A stretch of DNA of 28,559 bases, taken from a candidate division WOR-3 bacterium. Lineage in GTDB: Bacteria > Hydrothermota > Hydrothermia > LBFQ01 > DSFT01. Position 1 is the stretch's first letter; the number at the start of each line of letters is the position of its first letter. The translations under genes were made by a program, and so were the position numbers. A model generated the notes under the pieces. The model was not told the DNA's origin and searched no databases. It saw only the letters and a program-made list of their open reading frames with translations. Below are positions 6,131-24,666 of the stretch, in pieces. The stretch covers positions 1-28,559 of the forward strand of contig CBFGJN010000020.1 of the NCBI GenBank assembly GCA_965649115.1, in the 5' to 3' direction.

Positions 6131-6253
6131 TTGTTAAGTGCCAAAATTTTAAAGCATAAAATGATTTATTGTCTTTATAGGGAAATTTAAAAGTATTGCT
6201 TAATTTTTCTGCTTAAATAAATACATATTTTTCCGCTTTATAATTTTCAGACT

Positions 6254-7111
6254 TTGTTATTTATCTTATTTGGGCAGTTTTCAAATTATGGAGGTGAAGT
6301 TTATAGAGTTGAACTAAATGGAAAATTAATAGGCCTTGGTTCATCATTTTATAATTTTAAGGATGCTTCAAGTGTTTTTTATAATCCAGCAAACTTAAAT
6401 TATTCAAATGAAAGTATCTTTTTTGGATTTGGTCTTTTATATGAAGGGATAAATGCAGTTTCATTATCTTATAAGTTTAAAAATAAACCTTATGGGATTG
6501 GTCTTTATTTAGTTCTAACAGATAATATAGAATTTACATCCTTACCAGATACTACAAGACCTCCAAGTGAAGATAACAAACCTTACATAACATCAATTGA
6601 AAACTACTTAGCAAGTGCTTTTTATTTATCAGGTGGTTATAAGAACTTTGGAATAAGCGCTAAAATTCTTTATCAAGGAATAAGTAATTACAGAGCTTTT
6701 GGATTTGGTTTTGATTTATCTACAAATTTAAAAAACTTTTCAATAATTCTAAGAGATTTTCTTCCAAGTTTATTATATTGGAATAGTAAAACTACCGAAT
6801 TTATACCTCCAATGATTATTTTAGCAACTTATAGTCAATATAAAAATTTTCTTTTATCAACAAGCTTAGATTTTTCCACCATAGAAAATAGAAACTTTGA
6901 TAGATTAATTTCTTTTAATAATTTTTCTATGGGATTTAGATTTGGTATTGAATATAATTTGAATGTTGTTTCATTAAGAGGAGGTTTTAGGAATTCAAAA
7001 CCTTCTTTTGGTTTTGGCATAAATTATAAAAATTATTCAATTGATTATGGCTCTTTTTATCATTCTGATTTAGGTCTTACTCATAGAACAAGTTTAACTA
7101 TTAAATTTTAA
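6254..7111 (+). CDS. PorV/PorQ (UPF0164)-like outer-membrane beta-barrel
   Basis: DASSVFYNPANL, FGFGFD, FGIEY...LRGG, alternating beta pattern, C-terminal THRTSLTIKF; TTG start 9 nt after TATAAT. Confidence 0.75.
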   Translation: MLFILFGQFSNYGGEVYRVELNGKLIGLGSSFYNFKDASSVFYNPANLNYSNESIFFGFGLLYEGINAVSLSYKFKNKPYGIGLYLVLTDNIEFTSLPDTTRPPSEDNKPYITSIENYLASAFYLSGGYKNFGISAKILYQGISNYRAFGFGFDLSTNLKNFSIILRDFLPSLLYWNSKTTEFIPPMIILATYSQYKNFLLSTSLDFSTIENRNFDRLISFNNFSMGFRFGIEYNLNVVSLRGGFRNSKPSFGFGINYKNYSIDYGSFYHSDLGLTHRTSLTIKF

Positions 7112-7833
7112 TGAATTTAAAAGTTTTGTTAGAATTTGATGGAACAAACTTCAAAGGATGGCAAAAACAAAAAGATAAAAGAACAGTTCAAGGAGAATTA
7201 GAGAAAGCTTTTTCAAATTTAATTGAAGGAAGATTTAAAATAATTGGATGTTGTAGAACTGATAGTGGTGTTCATGCTTTAAATTATGTTTGTAATGTTA
7301 AAATAGAAGGTAATTTGAAATTGAAGTTTGAAAAATTGAAAAACGCCTTAAATAGCATTTTGAGTGAGGATATTTATATAAAAAACATTGAATTTGTTGA
7401 AGATAACTTTAATGCGAGATATTATGCTAAATTTAAAGTTTATCGTTATAGAATTTTAACTTATCCTTCTCCTTTTTTAATTAGATATGGTTTTTATCCA
7501 AAAGTAAAAATTGATTTTAAAAAGTTAAAAGAAATTGAAGATATTTTTATAGGAAAAAGGGATTTTAAAAGCATAAGTGCAAAGTCTGAAAAATCTGGAA
7601 TTTGTAATGTTTTTGAATCATATTGGACTTTTAATGATAATTATTATGATTATTTTATTAAAGCTGATAGATTTTTATATAAAATGGTTCGCTCAATTGT
7701 AGGTTTAATGATACTATATAGTTTGAATAAAATTTCAAAAAATGAAATAATTGAAGTTTTAGAATTTAAGAGAAAATTTATTCCTTATGTTGTTCCTTCA
7801 AAAGGTTTAACATTAATTGAAGTTGGTTATTAA
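7111..7833 (+). CDS. truA: tRNA pseudouridine(38-40) synthase
   Basis: FDGTNFKGWQKQ, TVQGELE, RTDSGVHA, FNARY, FLYKMVR, PSKGLTL. Confidence 0.95.
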   Translation: MNLKVLLEFDGTNFKGWQKQKDKRTVQGELEKAFSNLIEGRFKIIGCCRTDSGVHALNYVCNVKIEGNLKLKFEKLKNALNSILSEDIYIKNIEFVEDNFNARYYAKFKVYRYRILTYPSPFLIRYGFYPKVKIDFKKLKEIEDIFIGKRDFKSISAKSEKSGICNVFESYWTFNDNYYDYFIKADRFLYKMVRSIVGLMILYSLNKISKNEIIEVLEFKRKFIPYVVPSKGLTLIEVGY

Positions 7834-7851
7834 AAGCCCCCTTACGGGGGC
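7832..7851 (-). terminator. Intrinsic terminator of the 637-aa gene (between convergent genes)
   Basis: Minus strand GCCCCC-GTAA-GGGGGC-TTTT. Confidence 0.8.
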
Positions 7852-7856
7852 GGTGG

Positions 7857-7869
7857 GGAGGTGAGAGTA
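7857..7869 (+). repeat. 13-bp inverted repeat arm, partner at 9785-9797
   Basis: GGAGGTGAGAGTA here; TACTCTCACCTCC at 9785-9797. Confidence 0.9.
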
Positions 7870-7871
7870 AA

Positions 7872-9785
7872 TTATTTTATCAGAATTTTATAAGTAATAT
7901 TATTAATTTTTAAGATGTAAATGCCTTTTCTATTGATAACATATTCCTTAGCTCTTCCACCATAAACTAATTTACCACTTAAATCGTAAATTCTAAATTC
8001 TCTTTCTTGGTCAAAGACAATTTTATTATTTAGAAGCTTAAATTCTTTTGAGGAACAATTATTACTTTCATTATTTGAAACTGGTGTTATGTAGCAGTTA
8101 TTATTTGTGTAGTAAAGGCCAGTAGTTTGAGTAGGATTATAATTGTCTGGACTAAAATTATAATCTTGTGTGGAAAATACATTATTGCTAATAGTAGTAT
8201 AGTTATTATAATTTTGGACAATCAGATTTAATTGCTGTCTTTGTACAGATGGACAAGTATTTCCATTTTTATCAGTCTTCAAAACCCAACCATATTGTTC
8301 TGTAAGAGAAATGTCATTCCACTTAAATGGATATTGTCTTATTCCTCCATGAGGGGGTAATGGTATTTGGCTTACATTGTAATTATATGGATGAACTCCT
8401 CTCATCCCATATACTACTATTCCACTATCCTGTGTAATTACAATATTATCAAAAGAAGGAGTCCAATTGTAAAAAGTAGCATTATTTGGGTTATTAAAAG
8501 GAATATATTTATATGCCCAAATTACATTACCACTATTCTTATCTATCTTAATTAAAGCTGGATGGTAAAACCTATAAAAGACTTTTTCTCCAACTACTCC
8601 TTCCGCGGCAGGATCGTAATAATTTCTATATTGTGCAAATTCATAGTAACCGACTACCGCACCTATAATATAACCATCGCTTACTTCTGCTAAACCATTG
8701 GGTTGTACCGAGAAGTTACTTAGTGAGTATAACTTTATCCATTTTACATTTCCATCTTTATCAAACTTTATAAGAGCCATTTTTATGAAAGGAACATTTT
8801 TATAGATTGTATCTACCTGTGTTACTTCAACAAAGTCATAATTAGGATTACATAAGTTGATACTTTGGTAAGGCCCATATAAACGAAACTCGCATAAAAT
8901 TCCACCTACTAGTAATCCACTATCGGATGTACTTAATAAAAAAGCCTGTGTAAACATATCCATAGCATATGCATTAGAATAATCATAGCTATTCCTGAAA
9001 GAAGTTGAAGTTATCATAGAAGAATCAATTTTTCCAAACGGATTTTTATACCAAATAACATTACCACTATTTAATGCTATTGTCGTTATTGGTGCAGTAA
9101 TATAATATACCATGTCACTTCCTCGACCCGTTATTGCTCCTAAACCCAGAGAACCAGGTCTTTTAACAATTTTAGCTAAACCACCTATGGAAACACTATT
9201 ATTTATAAGAACATTCTTTCTATATAAGACATTATAACTATTCAATTGGACTTTTTCTAATACTTCTGCTCTTTGATTACCACAAGCGTGATAGAAGCTA
9301 ATAATAGCCGTAGAGTTATCAATAACTTCTACGGCATGACCATAACCGTCAAGGCAACCAGGACCCATATTTTTTGCCCAGTTTATAGATTTTGTATTTA
9401 GATTAAGGGAAATTATTATGGGATCAGTCCAATTATTCCAAGGAATAGCGTTATCAATGTTAACAGCTCTTCCTGAAATGATGGCATTATTCCCATCAGG
9501 TGTTACAGATATTTGATAAGCAACAAAAACATTACCATTGGGATTTTGATAAGTAACATAATCAACAAGTTGTCCAATAGTATCAAGGAATCCTATAGCA
9601 AAGTGACTTAAACTTTGGTCGCCTCTTGAAAGGAAAACTAATTTCTTATTAGGAAGTTCTTTTAGGCTAAAAATTGCTTGATTAGTTATAGTAGAAGCTC
9701 TTATTTCAGTATAGAACCTAGTCACTGCATGAGCATTAGACATTATTCCAAGGGCAAAAATTCCCAGACCAACTTTCCACTTCAT
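7872..9785 (-). CDS. Secreted protein with propeller-like repeats and a T9SS type A-like C-terminal sorting domain
   Basis: Canonical signal MKWKVGLGIFALGIMSNAHA; repeats KFDKDGNVKW, KIDKNSGNVIW, KTDKNGN; tail IYDLSGKLV...KGIYILKIN...KILIK; strong SD AAGGAGGTGA. Confidence 0.75.
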   Translation of the reverse strand: MKWKVGLGIFALGIMSNAHAVTRFYTEIRASTITNQAIFSLKELPNKKLVFLSRGDQSLSHFAIGFLDTIGQLVDYVTYQNPNGNVFVAYQISVTPDGNNAIISGRAVNIDNAIPWNNWTDPIIISLNLNTKSINWAKNMGPGCLDGYGHAVEVIDNSTAIISFYHACGNQRAEVLEKVQLNSYNVLYRKNVLINNSVSIGGLAKIVKRPGSLGLGAITGRGSDMVYYITAPITTIALNSGNVIWYKNPFGKIDSSMITSTSFRNSYDYSNAYAMDMFTQAFLLSTSDSGLLVGGILCEFRLYGPYQSINLCNPNYDFVEVTQVDTIYKNVPFIKMALIKFDKDGNVKWIKLYSLSNFSVQPNGLAEVSDGYIIGAVVGYYEFAQYRNYYDPAAEGVVGEKVFYRFYHPALIKIDKNSGNVIWAYKYIPFNNPNNATFYNWTPSFDNIVITQDSGIVVYGMRGVHPYNYNVSQIPLPPHGGIRQYPFKWNDISLTEQYGWVLKTDKNGNTCPSVQRQQLNLIVQNYNNYTTISNNVFSTQDYNFSPDNYNPTQTTGLYYTNNNCYITPVSNNESNNCSSKEFKLLNNKIVFDQEREFRIYDLSGKLVYGGRAKEYVINRKGIYILKINNITYKILIK

Positions 9786-9801
9786 ACTCTCACCTCCTTT
9801 T
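9785..9801 (-). promoter_or_regulatory. Strong Shine-Dalgarno and second arm of the 13-bp inverted repeat
   Basis: Minus strand aaaaGGAGGTGAgagtATG. Confidence 0.9.
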
Positions 9802-9936
9802 CATATTTAAGGTTATGTTGCATAGTGTCAAAATTTTAACAGAATTTAATGAAAAAAAGATTTAATAATTTCATTATTTTAAGGCAAAATTTGACAGATT
9901 TTTTAAATTTTATAACTTAACTTTATAATTTTCAAA

Positions 9937-11790
9937 ATGACTAAAACAAAATTTAAAAAATATCACAAAAATAGATTAAAACCAATCAAAAAATATCTCA
10001 TTTATAAGGCAATTTTAGGTGGAAGAACAATAAGAGAAATTTCAAAAGAATTTAAGTGCTCAGTTAGAACTATTATTGAAATTAAAAGAAAATCAAAACA
10101 ATCATTAATTCCATTTCTTGAAATTGACAATCTTGGTTATCTAATTTATGAAATTAAAGAACAAAATCCATTTTTCACTTTTAAGGATATTCAAAATTAT
10201 CTCAAAGAGCATTATAAAATTAAGGTTTCTATTTCAACTATTTCAAACAAATTGAAAAATTATTGTCTTTATTCTGAAAAATATATGAATGAAGATATTT
10301 TAGAACTTTTCAAAAAGCTTATTGAAGATAATGAAATTAAAATGGCTTGTGAGATTTTAAAGCACTATAAATTAAACCTAAGAGATTATTATTTACTTGA
10401 AAAATTGCCTGATGACTATTTGCCAGTTGATATTTTTGTCAAAAAAATTATTTACTTGATTGAAAATGAAAAGTTAAGTGAAGATGAAATTTTAAATTAT
10501 CAAAGAAAGTTAGAAGTAATTTTAAGTAATTATCAGAAAGTTGATTTAAATTACTATTACCTATTGCTCCTTAAAGTGTACTTTTTAGTGCTTTTTAGTG
10601 AATTTGATAAGGCTTTTGAAATTTACAATCAAAAGAAAGATGAAATTGAGAAATTACCTTTAAATTTAAGAGTTGATATTTTGCTGTTATTTTCAAATTT
10701 ATTTTTATTGAAGTATCCAAGAGAAGCTTTAAGAATTATATCAAAATTGAAAAGAATTAAGAAGTTTGATTTAAGAGAAGATTTGTTTAGACTATATTTA
10801 AATTTAGGTTATTTAAATAAAGCAAAGGGGATTTTTTCAGAACCAATTTTAGATTTTTTAATGGGTAATTATAGGAAGTTTATAAAAGAGGTTTCAAAAT
10901 TTTTGGATAAAATAGAAGATGCCCAAACCAAAACATATTATAAATCACTTTTAATGGAAAGTAAAATTTTAAATAACATTCCAATTTCAATTATATCAAA
11001 AGAAATTGAAAAAGAAGTTGAAAAGTACCCATTTTATCAGATGGAATTTAAAGGTTGTAATGCTTTGAAGTTTGCTATATTAGGTGATTATGAAAAGGTT
11101 AAAGAGCTATTAAGTGATGAATTGGAAAAATCAAATATAATTAAGGCAATTCTAACAAAAAATTACAAAATTCTTTCAAAATATAGAAAGCAGGAATTGT
11201 TAGTTAAGTATTTAATAAAAGGCAATTTGAAAAGGGCTATTGAAGTTGCAAGAAAATATGGACTTTTTCATAATTTACATTTATATTCTATACTTTTAAA
11301 TAAGTCAATAAAACGACTTAAAAGATATAAGGAATTTAGGAAAGTTGTTAATTTAATAAGAAACAATAGGAAATTTCAATTGAAGGTTTATATTTTGAAA
11401 GAAAAACAAAGGATTTATGCGAATAATAAACTCATTAGAGCTTCAAATAGATTTAGTAAAATGTTCTTAGTGTTCTATTATTTGATAAATAATAAAAGGA
11501 AAATTGTTGAAATTAAGGATTTGTTAAGAAATGGAATTATTGATTATGATGACTTGAAAAATGTTAAAAGTTATATTTTTAAGCTTAATCATCTTTTTGG
11601 TTTTAAGTTATTCTCAGTTGAAAATGTTTATATTAAGTTAAATGATAATTGTAAAATTTATTTTGATTTAAATGATTTTGAAAAAACTAAAAGTAAAAAG
11701 CTAATTAGACGCTTACCATTCTATAATTTCTATGATAAAAATAAATTCGCTTTTGATGTTTTTAGCTTTGTAAAAGCTAATTGGAAGTAA
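9937..11790 (+). CDS. Large putative transcriptional regulator: N-terminal tandem HTHs, TPR-like helical core, C-terminal SARP/OmpR-like winged helix
   Basis: RTIREISKEFKCSVRTI; EQNPFFTFKDIQNYLKEHYKIKVSISTISNKLK; C-terminal LKVYIL..RIYANNK..FYYLINN..VKSYIFKLN..IYFDLNDFE; TATAAT 7 nt before the ATG. Confidence 0.6.
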   Translation: MTKTKFKKYHKNRLKPIKKYLIYKAILGGRTIREISKEFKCSVRTIIEIKRKSKQSLIPFLEIDNLGYLIYEIKEQNPFFTFKDIQNYLKEHYKIKVSISTISNKLKNYCLYSEKYMNEDILELFKKLIEDNEIKMACEILKHYKLNLRDYYLLEKLPDDYLPVDIFVKKIIYLIENEKLSEDEILNYQRKLEVILSNYQKVDLNYYYLLLLKVYFLVLFSEFDKAFEIYNQKKDEIEKLPLNLRVDILLLFSNLFLLKYPREALRIISKLKRIKKFDLREDLFRLYLNLGYLNKAKGIFSEPILDFLMGNYRKFIKEVSKFLDKIEDAQTKTYYKSLLMESKILNNIPISIISKEIEKEVEKYPFYQMEFKGCNALKFAILGDYEKVKELLSDELEKSNIIKAILTKNYKILSKYRKQELLVKYLIKGNLKRAIEVARKYGLFHNLHLYSILLNKSIKRLKRYKEFRKVVNLIRNNRKFQLKVYILKEKQRIYANNKLIRASNRFSKMFLVFYYLINNKRKIVEIKDLLRNGIIDYDDLKNVKSYIFKLNHLFGFKLFSVENVYIKLNDNCKIYFDLNDFEKTKSKKLIRRLPFYNFYDKNKFAFDVFSFVKANWK

Positions 11791-12889
11791 GTTCATCTAG
11801 AATGTTTTCAAAAAAACTATTATCAATTAAAAAGCTTATTCTTAAATCTGAAATTGTTAAAAATTCAATAGGATACTTAATAATTTTTGAATGAATTTCT
11901 GGACTATTTAATAGTCCATATCCAATAACTGAAACAAATTTTTTATTATCATAAGCTTCAAAATTTTCAAATAAATTTTGAAACTGATTAAAGTCATTTT
12001 GTTTTATCACTAAGATAATGCCACTTGACAATTTCTGAAATAAAATAATTTGAATATCGTTCTCTATTAATTTTTTGAAAATTTCATCGTTGTAGTTCAT
12101 CTTTATCAAAACTACATCCATTTGAGTTATGGATTTTATTTTTGGTGATTCAAGAAAATTTCCAACCATCGTTCCTCCTCCTTTTTCAAAAGAACTATAA
12201 ATATAAAATGGAAAATTGAATTTTGCTGATAAACTAACAGCTCTTGAATGCATAACTTTTGCTCCAAAACTCGCCATCTCTATTAACATATCAAAATTAA
12301 TTTTATCAAATCTATATGATTTTTTAATTCTTGGGTCAATAGCATAAACACCATCAACATCTGTCCAAATCTCACATCTTACATTACCAAACCTCTTATT
12401 TAATTCAATTGCAATAGCAATAGCTGTTAAATCACTTCCACCTCTTCCAAGTGTAGTTATTTCCTTATCAATGCTGACACCTTGAAAACCTGCTACAATT
12501 GGAACCTCATTTTTATTTAGACAATCAATAACTCTATTTAATTTAACTTCAATAATCCTAGCATTATTAAATCTATTTTCTGTAATTATTCCAACTTGTG
12601 AGCCAGTAAATGAACGAGATGGAATGCCAATATCATTTAAAGCAATTGATAATAATGCCATTGATATCCTTTCGCCAACAGATATTAACATATCTAATTC
12701 TCTTTTGGGAGGATTTTTTGAAATTTCATAAGCCAAATTCAATAAATTATCAGTAGTTTTACCCATAGCAGAAACAACAACTACAGGTCTATAACCTTCA
12801 TTTATTTTTTCTTTAATTATATTAGCAACATTTAAAATTCTTTCTTTGTTAGCAACCGAAGAACCACCAAATTTCATCACTAATATCAT
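11777..12889 (-). CDS. lysC: Aspartate kinase
   Basis: MKFGGSSV, VVVVSAMGKTTD, AGFQG, TTLGRGGSDLTA, TDVDGVY, GAKVMH; divergent ACT region. Confidence 0.95.
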   Translation of the reverse strand: MILVMKFGGSSVANKERILNVANIIKEKINEGYRPVVVVSAMGKTTDNLLNLAYEISKNPPKRELDMLISVGERISMALLSIALNDIGIPSRSFTGSQVGIITENRFNNARIIEVKLNRVIDCLNKNEVPIVAGFQGVSIDKEITTLGRGGSDLTAIAIAIELNKRFGNVRCEIWTDVDGVYAIDPRIKKSYRFDKINFDMLIEMASFGAKVMHSRAVSLSAKFNFPFYIYSSFEKGGGTMVGNFLESPKIKSITQMDVVLIKMNYNDEIFKKLIENDIQIILFQKLSSGIILVIKQNDFNQFQNLFENFEAYDNKKFVSVIGYGLLNSPEIHSKIIKYPIEFLTISDLRISFLIDNSFFENILDELTSN

Positions 12890-14415
12890 CCCAACTCCTC
12901 TATTTTAAATCCATCTTCTGTTGCTAAAACAACGATGTAATTTAAATCTTCTGGTGCATAAATTGATAGAATTTGATTTGGATCAATAATAGGATAGTAC
13001 TTTATTTTTGAAACAATGTCCTTTAAGTTTCCTTTAAATAGGATTCTAAATCTAACACCAAGTTTCCTTAAATTATCAATATTTTGTATAATTTCATCAT
13101 CAAATTTATCAAGAACTAAATCATAATTTTCATTATCATCTTGTTTTTTATAATTAGAGAAATATCTTTCAACTTCCTCAATAAAATCATATAAATTTTC
13201 AACATCCATAGAAAATCCACAAGCAAGCTTATGGCCACCATAACCATTAAGCAAATCAGAAATACTATTTAAAAATTCAAGCATATTATATCCCGAAGGT
13301 GCTCTAATTTCTCCAACGATTTTATTATTTTCATCAATAGAAATAGCGATAACAGGAACCTTATAAATTTCTTTAATTTTACCTGCAATATAACCAATGT
13401 ACTGAGGTTCTACATGTCTTAAATCTAAGAGAAGATAACCTTTAACTCTTTTATTCTCGTTTTTTATTCTTATAACCTCTTGGTCTAATTTTGATAATGT
13501 TTCTTTCGTTTTCTTGTAAATTTTGACAAATTGCTCTTCTATAAACACTTCATCATTAGATAACAATAGCTCAACAGCAATGTGTTTAAATCCTTCACTA
13601 TGAATGCTTGAAAGCGTTGGAATAATAGAATATAAATTTGGACTTTGACCTGATATCATAGAAAAGATTTTAAATAGTGGAAAACTATATCTATTTATTA
13701 ATTCTTTTGCTAAATCTACAATAATTTTATTTTCAGAGAACATAGGAACTTTATCAGCTATTATTCCAAGTGCTGAATAAATAATAAGTTCAGGCATATT
13801 TGATATAATGTAATTTATATCATATTTGAATTTTAAATTAAGAAGACCAATAGCTATTTTCAAACTTAATAAAGAAGCAGAAATGTGAGGGAATGAACCA
13901 CCCATTTTTGGATTTACAATTATAGCATTAGGTAATTGCTGAGGTAATTCATGATGGTCTGCTATAATCACACTAATGCCTTTTTCATTTGCGTATTCAA
14001 CCTCTTCATAACTACTTAAACCTGTATCAACACATATTATTAATTTTATATTGTTTTCATAAGCATAATCAACACCAAATTTGTTTAATTTATGACCTTC
14101 ACTATTTCTTTTGGGAATGTAATAAATTGAGTTTGATTCAAGCATATTTAGAGTTTTTATTAAAATTGCTGTTGAAGTTGTCCCATCTAAATCATCATGT
14201 CCCCAAATAAGAATTGTTTCCTTTGAAGCATATTTAAGAATTTCCTTTAACGCTAATTCCATATTAGGAATTGCTCTTGGTGGTAATAGATTTTCAATTG
14301 TAGGCTGAAATAGACTTTTCACAAGGTCCAAATCAGTTATACCTTTTTTCATGAGAACCTTCACTATTTGTGGATGTAATTTATATTCATTTTCCAAAAT
14401 TTGTTCAACATTCAT
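12886..14415 (-). CDS. recJ: RecJ-like DHH-family ssDNA exonuclease
   Basis: GHDDLDG, YYIPKR..EGH, CVDTG, IADHH, IVNPK, IADKVP, GGHKLACG. Confidence 0.8.
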   Translation of the reverse strand: MNVEQILENEYKLHPQIVKVLMKKGITDLDLVKSLFQPTIENLLPPRAIPNMELALKEILKYASKETILIWGHDDLDGTTSTAILIKTLNMLESNSIYYIPKRNSEGHKLNKFGVDYAYENNIKLIICVDTGLSSYEEVEYANEKGISVIIADHHELPQQLPNAIIVNPKMGGSFPHISASLLSLKIAIGLLNLKFKYDINYIISNMPELIIYSALGIIADKVPMFSENKIIVDLAKELINRYSFPLFKIFSMISGQSPNLYSIIPTLSSIHSEGFKHIAVELLLSNDEVFIEEQFVKIYKKTKETLSKLDQEVIRIKNENKRVKGYLLLDLRHVEPQYIGYIAGKIKEIYKVPVIAISIDENNKIVGEIRAPSGYNMLEFLNSISDLLNGYGGHKLACGFSMDVENLYDFIEEVERYFSNYKKQDDNENYDLVLDKFDDEIIQNIDNLRKLGVRFRILFKGNLKDIVSKIKYYPIIDPNQILSIYAPEDLNYIVVLATEDGFKIEELG

Positions 14416-14421
14416 GTGCTT

Positions 14422-15648
14422 TTACCTCCTTATGTACCAATCTACATATGCTTTTATACCCTCCGCTATATTTCTTGAAATCTCATCTTGATATTTTTCA
14501 TCTGACAAAAGTTTTGCCTCCTTCGGATTTGATATAAATCCAAGCTCAACTAAAACAGATGGTGAATAAACACCTCTTAAAACATAAAATCCCGCTTGTT
14601 TAACACCTCTATCTTTTCTATCTTTGTTTATTTTTTGATGAATAAAAAATGCTAATTTTTGCGATTCTTTCAAGTAAGCACTTTGCAATATATCTGAAAT
14701 AATAAATTTAAGTAAGTCATTGTCTTCAACTTCATATTTTATAACTGAATTTTCAAGGGTTTCAACTGCTCTTTCCTCATTAGTTCTCGCTGTTGAAAGA
14801 AAGTAGGTTTCAGGACCTTCTGCATTATCAGTTTCAGAATAATTACAATGAATACTAACAAATAATTTAGCGTTGAACTTTTTAGCAATTTCCGCTCTTT
14901 CTTTCAATGAAACAAAATAATCATTATTTCTTGTTAAAACCACTTTAAAACCGTACTCCTTTTTTAAAATATCCGCTATTTTTTTGCTTACACTTAATGT
15001 TATATCTTTCTCTTTTATTCCCCATTTTCCAATTGCTCCTGGGTCCTCACCTCCATGTCCTGGGTCAATAATAATATACCCAAAATTGCCATATGAGTAA
15101 ATCACAAATTTTAAAACATTTTTTTCTTTAATTTTCTTATAAGAGCCATATTTTGTAGTTATGAAAATTTTAAAGAAAGCCCCTTCTTTTGTATGAAAAA
15201 TCCTTATAGAATCTATAACTTCGCTATTACTATTGATATAATTATATTTTGGATAAAATCCGTCCTTTATGTGAATAACTAAACTATTTTCATCAAACCA
15301 AACCTGTTCATTTAAACTTTTAGAAAAATAAAAATTCAATATACAACTATCATTTCCTTCAATAAATTCAAATCTTTTAATTGTTTCAATAGCCCTAAAA
15401 AATTCACTGTTTTTATAATCCCAAAATATAGGATTTGATGTTAATTTATAAACAATTAGTGCAAGACTATTTCCATCTAAAAAAATTTTATTATTTTCAA
15501 TTTTATAATCCATTTTAAAATTTTTTCCTTTATAAGAAAATGAATTTTTTTCAAAATTAAAATAAATTGTGTCGTTTTTATAAAAAGCAAAATTTTTTTT
15601 AAAATTTATTGAATAGATTGAAAGGATGCTATCAAGGGCAAACATCAT
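14422..15648 (-). CDS. N-acetylmuramoyl-L-alanine amidase (Amidase_3)
   Basis: IIDPGHGGEDPGA, EKDITL, LTR..D..VSLKER, FVSIHCN, SVLVELGFISN. Confidence 0.92.
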   Translation of the reverse strand: MMFALDSILSIYSINFKKNFAFYKNDTIYFNFEKNSFSYKGKNFKMDYKIENNKIFLDGNSLALIVYKLTSNPIFWDYKNSEFFRAIETIKRFEFIEGNDSCILNFYFSKSLNEQVWFDENSLVIHIKDGFYPKYNYINSNSEVIDSIRIFHTKEGAFFKIFITTKYGSYKKIKEKNVLKFVIYSYGNFGYIIIDPGHGGEDPGAIGKWGIKEKDITLSVSKKIADILKKEYGFKVVLTRNNDYFVSLKERAEIAKKFNAKLFVSIHCNYSETDNAEGPETYFLSTARTNEERAVETLENSVIKYEVEDNDLLKFIISDILQSAYLKESQKLAFFIHQKINKDRKDRGVKQAGFYVLRGVYSPSVLVELGFISNPKEAKLLSDEKYQDEISRNIAEGIKAYVDWYIRR

Positions 15649-17223: not shown

Positions 17224-17349
17224 AGTTGAAAATTTTAAAGTTTAAGTTAGTAAAACTTTATTTTTGTGTCGTGTCCAAATTTCGGCTATAGGGGCAAAGC
17301 CCCTTCTTGCATTATTTTTGGTCGTATTTCCTTTAAACTTTTCAAGCTT

Positions 17350-17700: not shown

Positions 17701-17882
17701 TAATCACTTCTTTACGGAGAACTATTACAAGGCGAAATCCCCCATAGCATAGGTAGGAAAAATTATGTTTTGTCCAACAATTATTGTTAAGCAATTGACT
17801 ATCAATAACTTATAAAGCTTTTAAGGAAATTATTGATTTATTTGTGGGACTTCAAGGAGGCTATCGCCCCGTTGGCCTAAAA

Positions 17883-17930
17883 ATGGGTATTTATAAGCCA
17901 AGGGCTTATTTATAGAGTAGGGAAAACATA
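17883..17930 (+). repeat. Intergenic repeat family A, degenerate copy
   Basis: ATGGGtattt-ATAAGCC-AAG-GGCTTAT-ttatagagtaGGGAAAA. Confidence 0.65.
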
Positions 17931-17989
17931 ATAAAATAAATACTTTAGAGAAATTGAACAAAAAAACCTTTAAACTTTTAAGACTTACT

Positions 17990-18490
17990 ATGAGTGAAGA
18001 AAAAGTAATAGAAAAACAGCTCTTAAAAGCAATTATCTTAACAAGAGTTAAAGACGCTATTGAATGGGCTATAAATTGGAGTAGGGGTAATTCAATTTGG
18101 CCTGCGACATTTGGGCTTGCTTGTTGCGCCATTGAAATGATGGCAAGCTCAATGCCAAGATACGATATGTCAAGGTTTGGTTATGAAGTTTTTAGAGCTT
18201 CACCAAGACAAGCAGATTTAATGATTGTTGCTGGAACTGTCACTATGAAAATGGCACCTGTATTAAGAAAAATTTATGACCAAATGCCAGAACCAAAATA
18301 TGTTATATCTATGGGAACATGTGCAAATACAGGTGGAAAATATCACAATTATGCGGTTTTACAAGGTGTTGATCAAGTTGTTCCTGTTGATATTTATGTT
18401 CCCGGTTGCCCTCCAAGACCTGAAAGCTTAATATATGGTATCCTTGAACTTAAAAAGAAAATTGAAAAGGAAAAAGGAATTATTTTATGA
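17990..18490 (+). CDS. nuoB: NADH-quinone oxidoreductase subunit B (start revised to ATG 17990)
   Basis: [47 protein letters not shown]. Confidence 0.96.
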
Positions 18491-18951
18491 GGAAATTTCT
18501 TTATTTTATAATAATTCTAATTATCTTGGATTTATTAGCATTTGGATTTCTTTTCTTTAAAATGGAAAGTGAAAAACAAAAATTTATAAATAATTTTGAA
18601 TTTCAAAAGAAACAACTTATTTATGATGTTGCTTATGTACTTGGACTTTTTGCAAGGGATAAAGTTTTAAGCGAAAGTTTTCCTGAAAATGTTAGAAATT
18701 ATTTAAATGAACTTGTTAGGAATGATAAAAATTTAGAGTTAATTTTAATATCTGATTCAAGTGGAAAAGTAATTTTTTCAACAAATGTTGCTTATGAAGG
18801 AAAAAACATTGATGAAATTTTTTCTGAAAACATAACTTCTCTTGTTGATTATGAAATAAAGAACACTGAGGATAAAGTTGTTCTTAATATGCCTATATCT
18901 GAGTTTAATAAAAAAATTTTATATTTAAGGATAGAATATAAAAGGAGGTAA
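18487..18951 (+). CDS. Membrane-anchored hypothetical protein (possible stand-alone PDC/Cache-like periplasmic domain)
   Basis: N-terminal TM helix; [14 protein letters not shown] resembles PDC sensor strands; no cytoplasmic signalling domain. Confidence 0.55.
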
Positions 18952-18956
18952 AGGAT

Positions 18957-21254
18957 ATGTTAAATTTTCTATTGATAGCACAAACAGAAACCTATTTTTA
19001 TGGTCTGAACTATGAAGCTCTAACGGGAACAAGAAGAGTTGGCTCTGCTTTTGTTGATGGTATAAATGCTCTTACATTTCATCTAATAAATCTAAATTAT
19101 GAATATTCTGCTTCTGACTATACTCTAAATAATAAACAAGGCAAACCATTTATTGGCTCTCAGTTCTTTGGATTTGGTTATTCTCTTGCTCCGTTTGAAG
19201 CAAGTGTCATAATGAGATACTTTGGTGATGCTTTTGATATAAATGGTGAAGGATGGTACTTGGGTTATGGTCTTGGTGATGTAAAAGCAAATTTCAAAGT
19301 TGGAATACCAATTGTAAAAAACACTTTTGCAGTTGGTTTTAGAGGTTATATTAACATTCCAATTGGAGAAGAGAAATATCTAAATCCTTTAACCTTGGAT
19401 AACGATACAATTAAAAATGTTCCATTTGCCACACAAGATCCAACAGGTGGAAAAGGTGGAATATATAGACCATTTGCATATAAAGTTTTGACTTATGGGC
19501 TTGGTGGTGCAATTTCGCTTCAAAAGTATCCTTTAAGATTGAATTTTGAATCTGTTTATAATGTTGGTGATACTGCAAAAGGTGATGAATTTTGGCAATT
19601 TGGATTGGGATTATTAGCTCATGTAGGAATTGTTAAACCTTATGTGGAATTTGTTTACCTTAAACCAGTAGATACAAAATTTAGTGATTCTTCAGCAAAT
19701 TTATTAACTTTTGGTCTAAAATTTGGTTATCCAAATTGGCACTTTGATATAGCACTTGAAAAACCATTAAATTACAATTATGGACCTTACGGAAGTGATT
19801 ATGTAAATTCATTTAAGCCCGATTGGAGTATATGGCTAGCATTAAATTATACATATGAAGCGGGAATTCCAAGAATTAAATATGGCGATGTTATTGCAAT
19901 TGTTCAAGATGCACAAAACAATTCACCAATTCAAAATGCTAGTGTAAATCTAAAACTTGAAAAAGCAACCTTATCACAAACTACTGATCAATTTGGGAAG
20001 TTTGAGTTTAAGAAAATTCCTGTTGGAACTTATACAATTGAAGTTTCAGCAAAAGATTACCAACCAGAGGTTAGAACCATAAATATAAATGAAGGTAAAA
20101 ATGAAGTTAGAATTTTGTTGAGTAAAATCAAAAAAGGAACAATTACAATAAGAGTTTTTGATAGTGAAACAAAAGCTCCACTTTTAGCAAATGTCATTTT
20201 ATTTAAGGATAATGTAAAAATTTCAGAAGATAGAACAAATGAACAAACAGGAACAATTGTTTTTAAAGATTTAGAACCGGGTTCATATTCATTTAGAGTT
20301 GAAAAAGAAGGATATAATGCTACTGTTAGAGCTATTGAGTTAAAAGAAAGTGCAGTTGAAGAAGTTGGGCTTGTCAAAATTAAATCAGAAACACCAAAGT
20401 TTGTTAAATTAACAGGAAAAATTGTAGATGCTAAGACAAATGCTCCAATAAGCAATGCTCAAATTATAGCAAGTGGAAAAACTACTGTTAGTGACCAATT
20501 TGGATTATATACAATAGATTCGCTTCCACTTGGAGTTATTCAAATTGGTGTTTCAAAGGAGGGTTATCAAACTTATTCGGAAGTAATTCAAGCAAATGTT
20601 GAAGGTGCCATTGTTAAAAACATAAGTTTAACACCAATTGAAGAAAAGCCTAAAACAGGAAAGGTTGTTGTTAGTGTTGTTGATAGAGAAACTAAAAAAC
20701 CTGTGATGGCAAGTATAACCATTCCTGGGACAAATATATCAGGTACAACCGATAATAATGGAGCTTATAGTTTTGAAATAGGACCTGGTGAATATGCTTT
20801 AAATATACAACCTAATGATCAATCCTATTATTCTCAAATTAAACAAATTCAAGTAAAGGTTGGTGAGACTACAACGATTATTGCAGAACTTGTAAAGAAA
20901 GAAGCAAAAATTGTCATAAGAAATATATACTTTGATTTAAATAAAGCTACAATAAGACCAGAAAGCTATCCAGTCCTTGATGAGCTATGTCAATTATTAA
21001 GAGAAACTCCTAATGCTGTGGTTGAAGTTGAAGGACATACTGATACCAGAGGTTCTGATGAATACAATTTAAAACTTTCACAAGCAAGGGCAGATGCTGT
21101 TAAAGATTACTTTATAAAGAAGAATTGTATATCACCTGATAGAATAAGTGCTGTCGGTTATGGAGAAACAAGACCTGTTGTTTTCCCTGAAAAATCAGAA
21201 GCAGATTATCAATTAAATAGAAGGGTTGAAATAAAATTCAAGGGAGAGAAGTAA
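18957..21254 (+). CDS. OmpA-family protein: N-terminal putative barrel, four carboxypeptidase-regulatory-like repeats, C-terminal OmpA domain
   Basis: Repeats of the type VxDxxTxxPIxxA...TD..G.F...G.Y....GY; NIYFDLNKATIRPES, EGHTD, NLKLSQARA, NRRVEI; SD AAGGAGGT. Confidence 0.88.
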   Translation: MLNFLLIAQTETYFYGLNYEALTGTRRVGSAFVDGINALTFHLINLNYEYSASDYTLNNKQGKPFIGSQFFGFGYSLAPFEASVIMRYFGDAFDINGEGWYLGYGLGDVKANFKVGIPIVKNTFAVGFRGYINIPIGEEKYLNPLTLDNDTIKNVPFATQDPTGGKGGIYRPFAYKVLTYGLGGAISLQKYPLRLNFESVYNVGDTAKGDEFWQFGLGLLAHVGIVKPYVEFVYLKPVDTKFSDSSANLLTFGLKFGYPNWHFDIALEKPLNYNYGPYGSDYVNSFKPDWSIWLALNYTYEAGIPRIKYGDVIAIVQDAQNNSPIQNASVNLKLEKATLSQTTDQFGKFEFKKIPVGTYTIEVSAKDYQPEVRTININEGKNEVRILLSKIKKGTITIRVFDSETKAPLLANVILFKDNVKISEDRTNEQTGTIVFKDLEPGSYSFRVEKEGYNATVRAIELKESAVEEVGLVKIKSETPKFVKLTGKIVDAKTNAPISNAQIIASGKTTVSDQFGLYTIDSLPLGVIQIGVSKEGYQTYSEVIQANVEGAIVKNISLTPIEEKPKTGKVVVSVVDRETKKPVMASITIPGTNISGTTDNNGAYSFEIGPGEYALNIQPNDQSYYSQIKQIQVKVGETTTIIAELVKKEAKIVIRNIYFDLNKATIRPESYPVLDELCQLLRETPNAVVEVEGHTDTRGSDEYNLKLSQARADAVKDYFIKKNCISPDRISAVGYGETRPVVFPEKSEADYQLNRRVEIKFKGEK

Positions 21255-21257
21255 TTT

Positions 21258-21734
21258 ATGGGGGGGTTTGACCCCCTTAAAAAATATAAAAATTTAAAGG
21301 AAACCAAAGAAATTATTGATAAACTCAAAAGTGAAAATAAAATTGTTGTTTTTACAAATGGTGTATTTGATATAATTCACCCTGGTCATATTGAATTATT
21401 AAGAAGTGCAAAGAGTTTTGGAGATTTTTTAATTTTGGCTTTAAATTCAGATAGTTCAGTAAAGAAAATTAAAGGAGACAAAAGGCCAATTTTCTCATTA
21501 GAGGAAAGAATAAAAATTTTGTCATCAATAATTTATGTAGATTTAATAGTTAGTTTTGATGAAGAAACACCATATGAAGTAATAAAGTTCTTGAAACCTG
21601 ATATTTTGGTAAAAGGAGGGGATTATAAAATTGAGGATGTTGTTGGTAGAGAGTTTGTTAAAGAAGTAAAAATTGTTCCTTATCTTCAAGGTTATTCAAC
21701 AACAAAAATAATTGAAAGAATTAAAAATGCTTGA
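21258..21734 (+). CDS. rfaE2: D-glycero-beta-D-manno-heptose 1-phosphate adenylyltransferase (RfaE domain II)
   Basis: VFTNGVFDIIHPGH, LNSDSSV..IKG..RPI, PDILVKGGDY, STTKII. Confidence 0.92.
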   Translation: MGGFDPLKKYKNLKETKEIIDKLKSENKIVVFTNGVFDIIHPGHIELLRSAKSFGDFLILALNSDSSVKKIKGDKRPIFSLEERIKILSSIIYVDLIVSFDEETPYEVIKFLKPDILVKGGDYKIEDVVGREFVKEVKIVPYLQGYSTTKIIERIKNA

Positions 21735-22065
21735 TTTAAATAGAAAAGAAATATTAGCAATTAGTTTATTTTTTCTGTTCGTTTTAATTGGTGAAATTGG
21801 GCTTTGGTACTACAAGGTTTTAAATCCTCCAAAATATGAAGTTTTAAAAAAACCAAATGAGGAGATTATTTTAAAGGATTCAATTAAGAAAGTTAGTTTA
21901 AATAACTCTTCTTACGAAGAACTTCTTCAAGTTCCTGGTATTGGACCAACACTTGCAAAAAGAATTATAGAAAACAGACCATATGAAAAAATTGAAGACT
22001 TAATGAAAGTTAAAGGAATAGGAAAAAAGAAATTTGAAAAAATTAAAAATTATTTTGAACCTTAA
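21727..22065 (+). CDS. comEA: ComEA-family helix-hairpin-helix DNA-binding protein
   Basis: TM helix, then VSLNNSSYEELLQVPGIGPTLAKRII and LMKVKGIGKKKFEKI; ATG 21727 overlaps the rfaE2 stop. Confidence 0.85.
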   Translation: MLDLNRKEILAISLFFLFVLIGEIGLWYYKVLNPPKYEVLKKPNEEIILKDSIKKVSLNNSSYEELLQVPGIGPTLAKRIIENRPYEKIEDLMKVKGIGKKKFEKIKNYFEP

Positions 22066-22077
22066 AATTTTACCTCT

Positions 22078-22159
22078 GCGGGAGTGGCGGAATAGGAAGA
22101 CGCGGCGGATTTAGGATCCGCTCCCGAAAGGGGTGTGGGTTCAAGTCCCACCTCCCGCA
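22078..22159 (+). tRNA. tRNA-Leu(TAG), CCA not encoded
   Basis: GCGGGAG/CTCCCGC acceptor stem, GCGGA-TTTAGGA-TCCGC anticodon arm, long variable arm CCCGAAAGGG, GGTTCAAGT, A discriminator. Confidence 0.97.
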
Positions 22160-22164
22160 TAAAT

Positions 22165-22788
22165 ATGAAATTATTAATTTTTGACTTTGATGGAACACTT
22201 TTTGATACATCTCTTGGTTTAACACTTTCCATAAATGAATTAACTTCAAAGTACAATCTTGAAAAGTTAGATAGAGAACAAGTTAAGAAAATTGTAGGAG
22301 GAGGCATTGAATCAACCTTAAAGGAAATTTTTAAAGAAAAATTTCATAAAGGCTTAATTGAAGAATTCAATAGTATTTACAGAAATTATATGTTTGAAGG
22401 TCTTGTCCCTTATACAAACATATTTGAAACAATAAGGAAAATAAAGGAAAATTTAGAAGTTAAAATTGTTATTTTTAGCAATAAAACGAAATTTTTCATA
22501 ATTGAAATTTTAAGGAAATTTGATGTTTATCATTTGTTTGATGAAATAATTACAATTGATGATGGATATAAAAAACCTGATACGAAGGCTATTGATTACT
22601 TAATAGAAAAATATGAAGTTAAAAGAGAGGATATTTTTATAATTGGTGATAGTTGCTACGATATTGAAACTGCAAAAATTTCAAATGTGAAAAGTATTTT
22701 CGTTAGTTGGGGATTTGGAGAGAACTGCTTTGCTGATTTTGTTGTAAATGAACCGAATGAAATATATGATATAGTAGCTTCAAAATAG
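22165..22788 (+). CDS. HAD-family phosphatase (phosphoglycolate phosphatase-like); start revised to ATG 22165
   Basis: IFDFDGTLFDT, FSNK, KKPD, IGDSCYD, VSWGF; the GTG at 22135 lies inside the tRNA. Confidence 0.9.
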   Translation: MKLLIFDFDGTLFDTSLGLTLSINELTSKYNLEKLDREQVKKIVGGGIESTLKEIFKEKFHKGLIEEFNSIYRNYMFEGLVPYTNIFETIRKIKENLEVKIVIFSNKTKFFIIEILRKFDVYHLFDEIITIDDGYKKPDTKAIDYLIEKYEVKREDIFIIGDSCYDIETAKISNVKSIFVSWGFGENCFADFVVNEPNEIYDIVASK

Positions 22789-23671
22789 CTAAATTTCCTC
22801 TATGGAATGTTTTATATATCTTGTCAGTTAATAATGATTGGTGGATTAATTTTAAAATATCTTCTTTACTATAAAATTGATTTATTTTTTTGAGTTGTTT
22901 GGTAATGAAAGAAGGTTTTATTTGCTCATTTAAATTTTCTTTTTCATATAACAAATTCAAAAGTATTCTTAAAATATAAGCATTGGATTCTATGAATTTT
23001 GTATTCTCAAAAAGTTTTATACTACTTAAAAAGTCAAAATTTTGTAAATAATTTAAAAATTCGTAAATTTTTCTTTCCTCAAAATTACTAATTATAATAT
23101 CAAAGTTTTCCTCACCACTCAAATATATTTTTTCTATTTCATTAGAACAAGTTTTTAAATCATTAGGTAAAATTTGAACAAGTTTTTCAATTTGATATGC
23201 ATTTAAATTGATATTTAGGGACTTTAATTTTTGAATAATCCACTTCCTTTTCCCATCTTTATTTAAATAGGGCATTAGAACAATAACGCAATTTTCAGTT
23301 TTTGTTATATTTTTCTTAATAAAATTTTCTGCTAAGCTTTCAAGTTTCTTTAAATTATTTTCATAAAAATTCAAACTTGAATACAAAATAACTTTATTTT
23401 CATTTATTTTTAAAAGTTGTTTCCAATTCTTCATTTCTTCAAAATCCTTAACAATAGCTAATTTTTTTCTTTTGTTGAAAATATCAGATGATTTCAAATA
23501 ATTTATTATTTCTTCTACATTTGCCTCATCTCCAAAAAACACTGATTTTTCATAATCAATAAATTTCTGAATAATTGTTTTTATTGGATAATCTTCTGGT
23601 CCAAGTAGAATAAAAATGTTCTTTTCTTTATATTCAGAAAAGTTTTTTAGAAAATCAATATGAGTTAGCAT
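22703..23671 (-). CDS. holA: Divergent DNA polymerase III delta subunit
   Basis: FILLGPEDY, SSDIFNKRKKLAIVKD, WIIQKLKS, DLKTCSNEIEKIYL, KIYEFL match the HolA layout. Confidence 0.7.
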   Translation of the reverse strand: MLTHIDFLKNFSEYKEKNIFILLGPEDYPIKTIIQKFIDYEKSVFFGDEANVEEIINYLKSSDIFNKRKKLAIVKDFEEMKNWKQLLKINENKVILYSSLNFYENNLKKLESLAENFIKKNITKTENCVIVLMPYLNKDGKRKWIIQKLKSLNINLNAYQIEKLVQILPNDLKTCSNEIEKIYLSGEENFDIIISNFEERKIYEFLNYLQNFDFLSSIKLFENTKFIESNAYILRILLNLLYEKENLNEQIKPSFITKQLKKINQFYSKEDILKLIHQSLLTDKIYKTFHRGNLAILKLLYHIFHSVHLQQNQQSSSLQIPN

Positions 23672-24629
23672 AAATTATAAGACCATTTCTTGAAGCTGAA
23701 AATATATAGTTATTATATACAATTAAATCAAACAAAACATCGCCTGTGTATTCAGGAGACCTATATCTTGCAACTTCGCCTTCAACTATGGTTTTTCTTC
23801 CAAGTCTAAATTCATTTTCAACTTTATCTAAATCAAATATTCTAACACCTCCTTTCCCTGCTGCTAAATATAAATAACTTCCTTTTAAATATAATCCAAG
23901 AGCTTCTCCTAATCCTATGTACCTTATAATAGGTTTTATCTCCTTTGGATTTGAAACATCAAATACATAAAGTCCAAGTTTTCCAAAACCAACATAAACT
24001 CTATTGTTATAGTATTTTATAGCAACAGCAAATGTTGTATCACCAAGAGTATAAGAACCTACAAGTTTTATATTTCTTATATTTGAAATATCAAGAATTA
24101 AAAGTCCAGCAGGTCCGTCAGCAACATAAGCGTAATTTCCTACCACATGAACACATCGGGCAAAACCAGGAGTGTCAAAATAAGAAATAATTTTAGGATT
24201 TCTTGGATTTGAAATGTCATAAACTGTTATACCTGCTTCTGCATCAGCTAAGAAGAGATAGTTTTCTTTAATATCAATATATAGTGCTGAATCTCTTGAA
24301 GCAACTTGTGAGATAATACTTGCAGTATAGGGATCAGTTATATCAATTACAATGAGGCCTGCTTTTCCACCTGCTACATATAAATAATTACCTTTTACTT
24401 TAAGACCTATTGGCATTCCGTCAACTTTAATTTCAGGGGCTATACCAAGTTGTTTAATATCAGAAAAATCAATAATGTATATGCTTTTTAATGAACTTAG
24501 ATAAGCATAATTTCCTTTTACTTCAATACCTACGATAGGCTTGTTAGATTTCCATCTTGATATAAGTTTTAAATTTAGACTATCCCCAAATCTCAAGCTA
24601 TCTGTTTGAAGAAAGAGTAAGAATAGCAT
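23655..24629 (-). CDS. LVIVD-repeat beta-propeller protein
   Basis: Repeated GNYLYVAGGKAGLIVIDITDP / GNYAYVADGPAGLLILDISN units. Confidence 0.9.
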   Translation of the reverse strand: MLFLLFLQTDSLRFGDSLNLKLISRWKSNKPIVGIEVKGNYAYLSSLKSIYIIDFSDIKQLGIAPEIKVDGMPIGLKVKGNYLYVAGGKAGLIVIDITDPYTASIISQVASRDSALYIDIKENYLFLADAEAGITVYDISNPRNPKIISYFDTPGFARCVHVVGNYAYVADGPAGLLILDISNIRNIKLVGSYTLGDTTFAVAIKYYNNRVYVGFGKLGLYVFDVSNPKEIKPIIRYIGLGEALGLYLKGSYLYLAAGKGGVRIFDLDKVENEFRLGRKTIVEGEVARYRSPEYTGDVLFDLIVYNNYIFSASRNGLIIYANSY

Positions 24630-24666
24630 ATTTTAAAATTTTAAAGTTAAAATTATTTTGCAGTAG

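Follow-up and report, generated by a model that had tools for sequence, protein, structure and literature searches.

Bacterial proteins that leave the cytoplasm as substrates of the Sec translocon and signal peptidase I (SPI) carry N-terminal signals of ~18–30 residues with a basic n-region. A variant described for the Bacteroidetes is the Q-rule, according to which SPI substrates have a Gln at position +1 that is cyclised by glutaminyl cyclase, with Q-values that vary outside the Bacteroidetes (PMC5837995); the passages concerned contain nothing on signal length. Very short leaders are described for the class III (type IV prepilin-like) signals of archaeal archaellins and pilins, which are basic and are cut by the prepilin peptidase before a hydrophobic stretch that is retained. 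The SRP (signal recognition particle) is presented in the relevant passages of three papers as conserved in all organisms, with losses only in the laboratory, where SRP-less growth was obtained with mutants of Streptococcus mutans and suppressor strains of E. coli (PMC8546722, PMC7844537, PMC8299109). A literature search without subscription journals and supplements found no report of ultra-short bacterial Sec signals, nor of natural SRP loss in free-living bacteria. Here, we analysed a 28,559-nt stretch of DNA (contig CBFGJN010000020.1, referred to as the window) of a hot-spring bacterium of the Candidatus Hydrothermia (candidate division WOR-3), in which three genes of envelope proteins begin with uncharged hydrophobic leaders of only seven or eight residues followed by Gln. 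This observation, made in a preliminary description of the window, was confirmed, and its interpretation as an export signal is supported at the genomic level. With a probability of about 0.7, such N-termini would represent real, ultra-short Sec signals that lack an n-region and are probably cut by the single LepB of the organism.

The window constitutes one whole contig of a genome (G000) of 1.85 Mb, which is distributed over 99 contigs, has a G + C content of ~28%, and is 94.5% complete. A naive caller (first ATG/GTG/TTG after a stop, overlaps removed greedily) yielded 1680 open reading frames (ORFs) of at least 80 aa, 166 of which fall into the short-leader class, defined as Met plus 4–9 uncharged, mostly L/I/F residues followed by a polar residue. 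These leaders resemble Sec/SPI signals in their N-terminal location, their hydrophobicity, and their occurrence on outer-membrane, periplasmic, and secreted proteins, where they take the place that canonical signals have in orthologues; in about half of the cases the presumed cut is preceded by a small residue, and SecA, SecY, and LepB are present as well. They differ from them in their length of 6–9 residues, the missing basic n-region (none of the 37 shortest contains K/R), a core of 5–6 and a c-region of 1–2 residues, and their occurrence in a lineage in which no SRP was found. In common with the Q-rule, Gln is the commonest residue after the short leaders, canonical signals of this genome end in it too (NAQ, YAQ, GAQ; 12 of 51 canonical runs end in Q), and T9SS-type cargo (T9SS, type IX secretion system) is abundant; in contrast to it, Gln follows only 45 of the 166 short leaders, Asn (41), Asp (26), and Glu (23) are frequent too, and no papaya-type cyclase was found. 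The emphasis of the preliminary description on Gln thus holds for its rank but not for its exclusiveness, and the comparison made there with the Bacteroidota concerns another phylum than that of the host. Whereas class III signals share the very short length, the short leader is the hydrophobic stretch itself, followed by polar, domain-forming sequence, and its cargo consists of ordinary barrels and enzymes. The 68 lipobox-type signals of the genome, substrates of signal peptidase II (SPII), are also shorter than usual (Cys at position 12–18, mode 14), but form a separate class that has a core of 8–9 residues and the lipobox Cys and keeps K/R in an MKK/MRK-type n-region in 63 of 68 cases. The S. 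mutans and E. coli mutants demonstrate that life without Ffh and FtsY is possible. Their losses were engineered or selected, whereas in the whole Hydrothermia class and in some sister families Ffh, FtsY, and 4.5S RNA seem to be naturally absent.

Short leaders in the window and across the genome

The first of the three genes codes for a PorV/PorQ-like outer-membrane beta-barrel of 285 aa (positions 6254–7111, forward strand). It opens at a TTG with the leader MLFILFG and a Gln codon (6254–6277), and between this start and the in-frame TAA at 6218–6220 only the near-start codons ATA and ATT occur. The second gene (18957–21254, forward strand) encodes a 765-aa envelope protein with an N-terminal region, four CarboxypepD_reg domains, and a C-terminal OmpA domain according to Pfam; here, an ATG opens MLNFLLIA plus Gln (18957–18983), preceded by an in-frame TAA at 18939–18941. 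The third gene codes for an LVIVD-repeat beta-propeller of 324 aa (23655–24629, reverse strand; PF08309, 2.7e-34), opens at an ATG with MLFLLFL and Gln (24606–24629), and has an in-frame TAA two codons upstream. ORF calling on the window returned the same three starts. Each is supported by an upstream element, as had been claimed: the promoter motif CTTTATAATTT (6236–6246, forward strand) ends 7 nt before the TTG of the barrel gene, CTTTAAAATTT (24636–24646, reverse strand) lies 6 nt before the ATG of the LVIVD gene, and a strong Shine-Dalgarno sequence, AAGGAGG (18942–18948, forward strand), is located 8 nt before the ATG of the OmpA-domain gene and is kept at five orthologous loci. None of the three leaders is followed by a Cys, so an SPII lipobox is absent. 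Four public runs, all consisting of contigs, were compared with the window. A contig from an independent run spans positions 6101–8390 without any difference or indel; it occurs in two runs (X2 and X4) that have identical numbers throughout and probably are one data set filed twice. An RNA-library run contains identical pieces of the OmpA-like and LVIVD genes, which may be DNA carry-over.

The identities proposed earlier for the three proteins proved sound. The OmpA domain was recovered with PF00691 (4e-24) and the LVIVD assignment with PF08309 repeats (~3e-34). The barrel protein has no Pfam match, and its match to the NCBIfam family PorV_fam (NF033709; 1.4e-8, profile positions 16–326 of 326) reaches 34.7 bits, below the cut-off of 90. 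Its AlphaFold model is a beta-barrel (pLDDT 77.7), for which Foldseek listed as best matches the T9SS translocon entry chains 8gl6_F and 6h3i_F (TM 0.6), followed by FadL/TodX; Foldseek gave no names for the two chains, which we take to be PorV. Taken together, the label PorV-like is fair.

Canonical signals coexist with the short leaders in the window. A 637-aa protein (7872–9785, reverse strand) carries the signal MKWKVGLGIFALGIMSNAHA and a T9SS-like C-terminal tail, which was recognised by a local tail hidden Markov model (HMM; 7e-14) and gave no match to TIGR04183, and a small TQ-repeat protein (3905–4108, reverse strand) carries MRNLIITLSLLGMIGGLNAQ; both signals are real, as the preliminary description had stated. 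A lipoprotein-type signal in which the Arg is retained, MLIMIRLLLFLLILSC, belongs to the gene at 25936–26556 (reverse strand). The amidase of the window (Amidase_3 cell-wall amidase according to Pfam; 14422–15648, reverse strand) starts with MMFAL-D, a leader that is very short or ambiguous. The TQ-repeat protein is one of two Thr-Gln-repeat secreted proteins in the genome, the other of which (G000 C50:227, forward strand) has the short leader MLLTLLSLTLQ.

Tabulation of N-termini, which had been suggested as a check, revealed that the pattern holds genome-wide (166 of 1680 ORFs); roughly 110–160 proteins of the genome carry short leaders. The first polar residue is most often located at position 8 (58 of 166 ORFs). 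In these length-7 leaders, positions 2–6 are nearly all I/L/F/V/M, position 7 is Ser in 20 and position 8 Gln in 27, and position 9 is again hydrophobic (I16, L8, F7). The frequency of Gln is highest at position 8 (3.1%, compared with 1.1–2.4% at positions 2–16). A strict Gln pattern, M-x(5-8)-Q with at least four L/I/F/V/M/W, occurs at 53 of the 1680 called starts (3.2%) vs. 10 of 6286 internal in-frame Met (0.16%). In these 53 cases the residue before Gln (−1) is small in 29 (S17, G5, A3, T3, C1), and position −3 is Leu or Ile in 43. K/R before the core is found in none of the 37 leaders that end at or before residue 7 and in 24 of the 76 that end at residues 8–10. The short leaders contain no Arg and hence no twin-arginine motif; TatC is present in the genome. 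Many Asn-type leaders run on as N-L-T, N-F-S, N-F-T, or N-L-S (e.g., M-x5-NLT), which resembles an N-glycosylation sequon directly after the leader and may be due to chance in an Asn-rich proteome.

The cargo suggests that short leaders mark proteins that function outside the cytoplasm. A Pfam scan (threshold 1e-5) covered 82 of the 166 short-leader ORFs, taken from 19 genome stretches rich in such genes plus the window, and 45 of them had a match. By eye, 29 of these 45 were judged to belong to envelope or secreted families, among them Omp85 with POTRA (BamA), YfiO (BamD-like), OEP (TolC-like), a TonB-dependent receptor, a SurA-like rotamase, a DsbA-like thioredoxin, BNR/sortilin, YceI, PEBP, FG-GAP, and LVIVD proteins, and peptidases of several kinds (S8 subtilases, gingipain-like C25, M1, M16, M28, and S15); one further match was a bactofilin. 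The scanned set included 25 Gln-type ORFs, 15 of which had a Pfam match, none to a clearly cytosolic family. A second line of evidence comes from the T9SS-like C-terminal tail, for which a local HMM of the “GxYxxK...” tail retrieved 65 proteins in the genome. Of 19 tested tails, 8 matched TIGR04183, the type A sorting domain of the T9SS, with 5 matches exceeding the cut-off, and Pfam matched the tail weakly (one hit, 6.5e-6). The short-leader class comprises 32 of the 65 tail proteins vs. 134 of the 1615 other ORFs (odds ratio 10.7, p 9e-17), and only ~7 of the 65 have, by eye, a canonical basic signal of at least 16 residues.

In the 53 strict cases, the median distance to the in-frame stop upstream is 3 codons, and 47 cases have it within 10 codons; this stop is TAA in 43, TAG in 6, and TGA in 4. 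Many short-leader starts have CTTTAWAATYT in front of them, in each of the three frames with respect to the start, and other starts have a strong GGAGG. The CTTTAWAATYT motif occurs 658 times in the genome and ends 4–12 nt before 321 of the 1680 ORFs of all classes (no signal, 208/1051; canonical signal, 43/250; short leader, 37/166). Since it is equally frequent before ORFs of every class, it probably is the organism's general promoter of near-leaderless mRNAs, which are common and seem to be the norm for first genes, and DNA upstream of it is therefore unlikely to be translated. Recoding or another genetic code was rejected because neither the type of stop nor the frame of the promoter motif is constant. 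Three short-leader genes begin directly after an apparent tRNA 3′ end (…GGTTCGAGTCC…), with no room for a leader: G000 C2:17369 (+), C13:29675 (+), and C47:3938 (−).

Some further features of the window adjoin the genes discussed. A tRNA-Asp gene (6057–6130, reverse strand) separates a malate/lactate dehydrogenase-like gene from the barrel gene. At position 6099 the window has A and nearly all contigs from other runs have G. A 154-aa ORF (18487–18951, forward strand) that codes for a membrane segment at the N-terminus and matches dCache weakly (1e-4) terminates 5 nt ahead of the start of the OmpA-domain gene, whose Shine-Dalgarno sequence lies within its last codons.

Short leaders as a lineage trait

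The predicted N-termini of orthologues show the short leaders to be a trait of the Candidatus Hydrothermia lineage that is most extreme in this genus. Orthologues of the OmpA-domain protein begin with MLNLLLIAQ, MISLLLVAQ, and MLTFILINQ in three genomes of the genus and with MMWLVLVSQ in two genomes of a sister genus with 51% G + C, with the same Shine-Dalgarno sequence and a nearby stop in each. For the LVIVD protein, MIFFLFLQ, MLFFIILQ, MLFFLVSQ, and MLFLILTQ were found within the genus, and MLFLILGQ, MIWMVLLQ, MFLMGLIAQ, and MLPTLFLAQ in f2, so that M-x6-7-Q is kept in a second family of the order. Orthologues of the amidase start with MLLLLLSQ (two f2 genomes), MVVLALTTLISIQ, MISLLLAGAWVSIE, and MLLLD, for which reason its MMFAL-D probably is an extreme member of the short-leader class; the earlier statement that this protein lacks a normal signal thus stands insofar as no canonical signal was seen, but the protein probably is not signal-less. 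One amidase orthologue, in a genome of the genus (G004:C1:52684-54469), is split and contains in-frame TGA/TAG stops; it possibly is a pseudogene or reflects an assembly problem. In the orthologues of the three window proteins, the amidase, and BamA alike, the leader sequence drifts, and its hydrophobicity and the following polar residue are kept.

In more distant orthologues, comparison of the N-termini shows the short leader in the place of a normal signal peptide. The barrel orthologues begin with MSLFIFQ, MILFLISQ, and MLIFFISQ within the genus and with MLLIVAFL-P in the sister genus of the same family, and the orthologue in f4, another family of the class, has the canonical 21-residue signal MRIQKFIKFSVILILFSFANA-E, which forms in the alignment (A1) a 12-column insertion directly after Met1. 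Pairs of paralogues within the genome differ in the same way (MLRLLITITLFISIGYAQ-TSKIVW vs. MIFLIISQ-INKIIW). The possibility, raised at the outset, that orthologues carry normal signals therefore applies to the barrel orthologue in f4, whereas genus, family, and order keep short leaders. In BamA, compared over 30 WOR-3 genomes, the leader has 7–8 residues here and in f5 (MIVLAIMAQ, 54–56% G + C), 11–12 residues in f4, and mostly is a canonical basic signal of 18–22 residues in other classes.

Since the local T9SS-tail HMM was insensitive in relatives (0–7 hits per sample), a census of N-termini was used for comparison across genomes. In samples of 100–200 kb, hydrophobic leaders ending at or before residue 10 were counted among proteins that have a hydrophobic segment at the N-terminus but no membrane span after it, which is a crude rule; related genomes are not independent, and the ORF calling was naive, which matters particularly at high G + C content. 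By this measure, such leaders amount to 113 of 296 in this genome, 21–32% in five other Hydrothermia samples (f1, f2, f3, f4, f5), 0 of 22 in a genome of the Hydrothermia family f6 (G076), 7 of 62 in two outgroup-class genomes (G043 and G031), and 9 of 46 in two SRP-less outgroup genomes (G078 and G064).

Sec machinery and the signal recognition particle

The genome encodes SecA (1016 aa), SecY, YidC, and TatC, and a single signal peptidase of family S26, a LepB of 219 aa with one N-terminal membrane segment (2e-45) that looks ordinary; SecB was not found in the genome. Glutaminyl cyclase, whose examination had been recommended, was not recovered: PF05096, the papaya-type enzyme, has no match in the 94.5% complete genome, and of two M28 proteins one is cytosolic-like and the other, which is secreted, resembles aminopeptidases far more, matching cyclase only at 2.7e-6.

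The Ffh M domain (PF02978) was found in none of 29 Hydrothermia genomes (this one, 20 relatives, and 8 further members of the class), several of which are rated 98–100% complete and one of which consists of 3 contigs, whereas 34 of 50 genomes of other WOR-3 classes and all of 14 control genomes contain it at ~1e-34. The SRP54-type GTPase domain common to Ffh and FtsY (PF00448) gave two hits at ~1e-70 (Ffh and FtsY) in each SRP-positive genome, but none at 1e-10 in 11 Hydrothermia genomes, a set without the order-f2 genomes, and none at 1e-10 in the WOR-3 families f7, f19, f20, and f22 either. In this genome, tblastn with six WOR-3 Ffh proteins found nothing (best E 0.058), and a profile built from the same six proteins reached only E 0.0018 against all six-frame segments. 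The 4.5S RNA model was negative in 3 of 3 Hydrothermia genomes and positive in 2 of 2 SRP-positive outgroup genomes. As Ffh, FtsY, and 4.5S RNA were not found in this class while other WOR-3 classes have them, recognition of the leaders must be SRP-independent. The preliminary description had predicted modified recognition by SecA, SRP, and signal peptidase; according to these searches, the SRP is not modified but was not found in the class, and LepB looks ordinary. The apparent absence of the SRP is at least as surprising as the short leaders themselves.

Nature and processing of the short leaders

The inference of a minimal export signal of 7–8 residues, as originally put forward, is supported by the genome-wide pattern, the exported cargo, the conservation in orthologues, and the position of the canonical signals. 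The 6–9-residue N-terminus would represent the complete signal, in which (f)Met is followed by five or six L/I/F/V, in many cases by one small residue, and finally by Gln, Asn, Asp, or Glu, and would be derived from a Sec-type signal by loss of the basic n-region and most of the h-region. The hydrophobic hexapeptide would be read without SRP, most likely by SecA and the lateral gate of SecY, with an uncharged, probably still formylated N-terminus buried in the membrane: Met should not be removed because the second residue is large, and if the formyl group is also kept, the N-terminus carries no charge. LepB probably cuts after the small −1 residue (S/G/A/T) where one precedes Gln, and the Gln exposed at the new N-terminus could form pyroglutamate non-enzymatically at the temperature of hot springs.

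Several results weigh against this interpretation. In 24 of the 53 strict cases, Gln is preceded by L, I, F, N, Y, or V, and a bulky or polar residue at −1 makes a poor SPI site. An h-region usually has 7–15 residues, compared with 5–6 in the core of the short leaders, and the best 6-residue Kyte-Doolittle window has a median of 2.82 in the short leaders and of 3.27 in the canonical cores of the same genome; compensation of the short length by extra hydrophobicity was rejected on account of these medians. Since nearly all lipoprotein signals keep K/R, the cell has not abandoned basic n-regions in general. Among the 45 Pfam-matched short-leader ORFs, 11 code for cytosolic enzymes with a hydrophobic strand at their beginning and 4 for polytopic membrane proteins. 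By the rules used, 17 of the 65 tail-bearing ORFs have no signal, which indicates that the ORF calls are imperfect; some of these 17 are short leaders missed by the rule and others probably are fragments. The strict Gln pattern also occurs at 406 of 29793 other ATGs that are open for 10 codons (1.4%), so AT-rich composition contributes to the raw frequency and some members of the class are due to chance. Finally, canonical BamA signals and mostly normal leaders occur in the SRP-less families f20 and f22, and the SRP-positive f9 has uncharged BamA leaders of 12–13 residues. A simple causation of short leaders by SRP loss was rejected for this reason; as the loss is neither necessary nor sufficient, the two are better regarded as co-occurring traits than as cause and effect.

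The most serious alternative, which nevertheless appears unlikely, is that the leaders are export signals but remain uncleaved: they would open SecY without being able to anchor, LepB would serve the canonical signals only, and the leader would slip into the periplasm together with the protein or stay as a weak membrane-binding tip. It fits this idea that the residue before Gln is bulky or polar in 24 of 53 cases, that N, D, E, or P follows the leader about as often as Q and that the residue after position 8 of the length-7 leaders is hydrophobic again (I16, L8, F7 of 58). Lipoprotein signals, which are anchored for processing, keep the basic n-region and a core of 8–9 residues, the short leaders have neither, and this contrast suggests that the latter need not anchor. 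Cleavage is favoured, however, by the concentration of small residues at −1 (29 of 53) and their rarity elsewhere in the leader, by the alignment of the Gln with the one that follows the A-x-A-type site in canonical paralogues and orthologues, and by a drift of the leader that is faster than that of the immediately following sequence, as is typical of peptides that are removed.

That the hydrophobic N-termini have no targeting role at all, being a by-product of AT-rich, promoter-near DNA on proteins exported by another, unrecognised signal, is improbable. Such an origin could explain why the pattern is found at 1.4% of random open ATGs, why the leaders are built from AT-rich codon families (L, I, F), and why the loosely defined class includes cytosolic enzymes, but in relatives with 51–54% G + C the same proteins carry the same leaders, T9SS-tail proteins show a 10.7-fold enrichment of the class, no clearly cytosolic family is found among its Gln-type members, the leader stands where orthologues have a canonical signal, and leader length has a sharp peak at 7. 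AT-richness thus does not account for the link to exported families or for the conservation in the relatives of higher G + C content. Even less credible is a miscalling of the starts, with real starts upstream and normal signals masked by assembly errors, unusual start codons, read-through, or another code. The caller was naive, and ATA and ATT codons do lie between the TAA and the TTG of the barrel gene; an extension of this gene would, however, contain His, Pro, Tyr, Asn, Gln, and Thr and thus no signal. The upstream stops are close (median 3 codons) and of all three kinds (TAA 43, TAG 6, TGA 4), the promoter motif is found in each of the three frames with respect to the start, four other genomes of the genus as well as other families show the same architecture, and the independent contig 6101–8390 is free of differences and indels. 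The concern voiced with the original observation, that the true starts lie upstream, is hence contradicted by near stops, by the promoter motif or Shine-Dalgarno sequence, and by the identical independent contig. A cleaved, ultra-short Sec signal accordingly is the preferred reading. For the wider proposition that the Hydrothermia, a class of thermophilic, free-living, and diderm-type bacteria, lost the SRP, its receptor, and its RNA and export about half of their non-lipoprotein secretome by an uncharged Met-plus-hexapeptide signal, part of it maybe uncleaved, the genomic data leave the odds about even.

If the short leaders are what they appear to be, the natural lower limit of a Sec signal lies far below the textbook 18–30 residues. 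Export would work without the basic n-region that is thought to engage SecA and fix the orientation, and SecA/SecYEG (or YidC) alone would decode a signal of one third of the textbook length. Standard predictors, and with them secretome, carbohydrate-active enzyme (CAZyme), and peptidase surveys based on metagenome-assembled genomes, would probably overlook about half of this lineage's exported proteins. Short yet basic, the lipoprotein signals of the same genome offer a ready-made comparison of the substrate needs of SPI and SPII. The apparent natural absence of the SRP from the whole class and several other WOR-3 families contradicts the usual view of the SRP as universal. A cultured WOR-3 strain with inner and outer membranes has been described (PMC12285271), which makes experiments in this phylum conceivable, and the apparently SRP-less lineage would be a naturally occurring model in which to study the targeting of membrane proteins in the absence of SRP.

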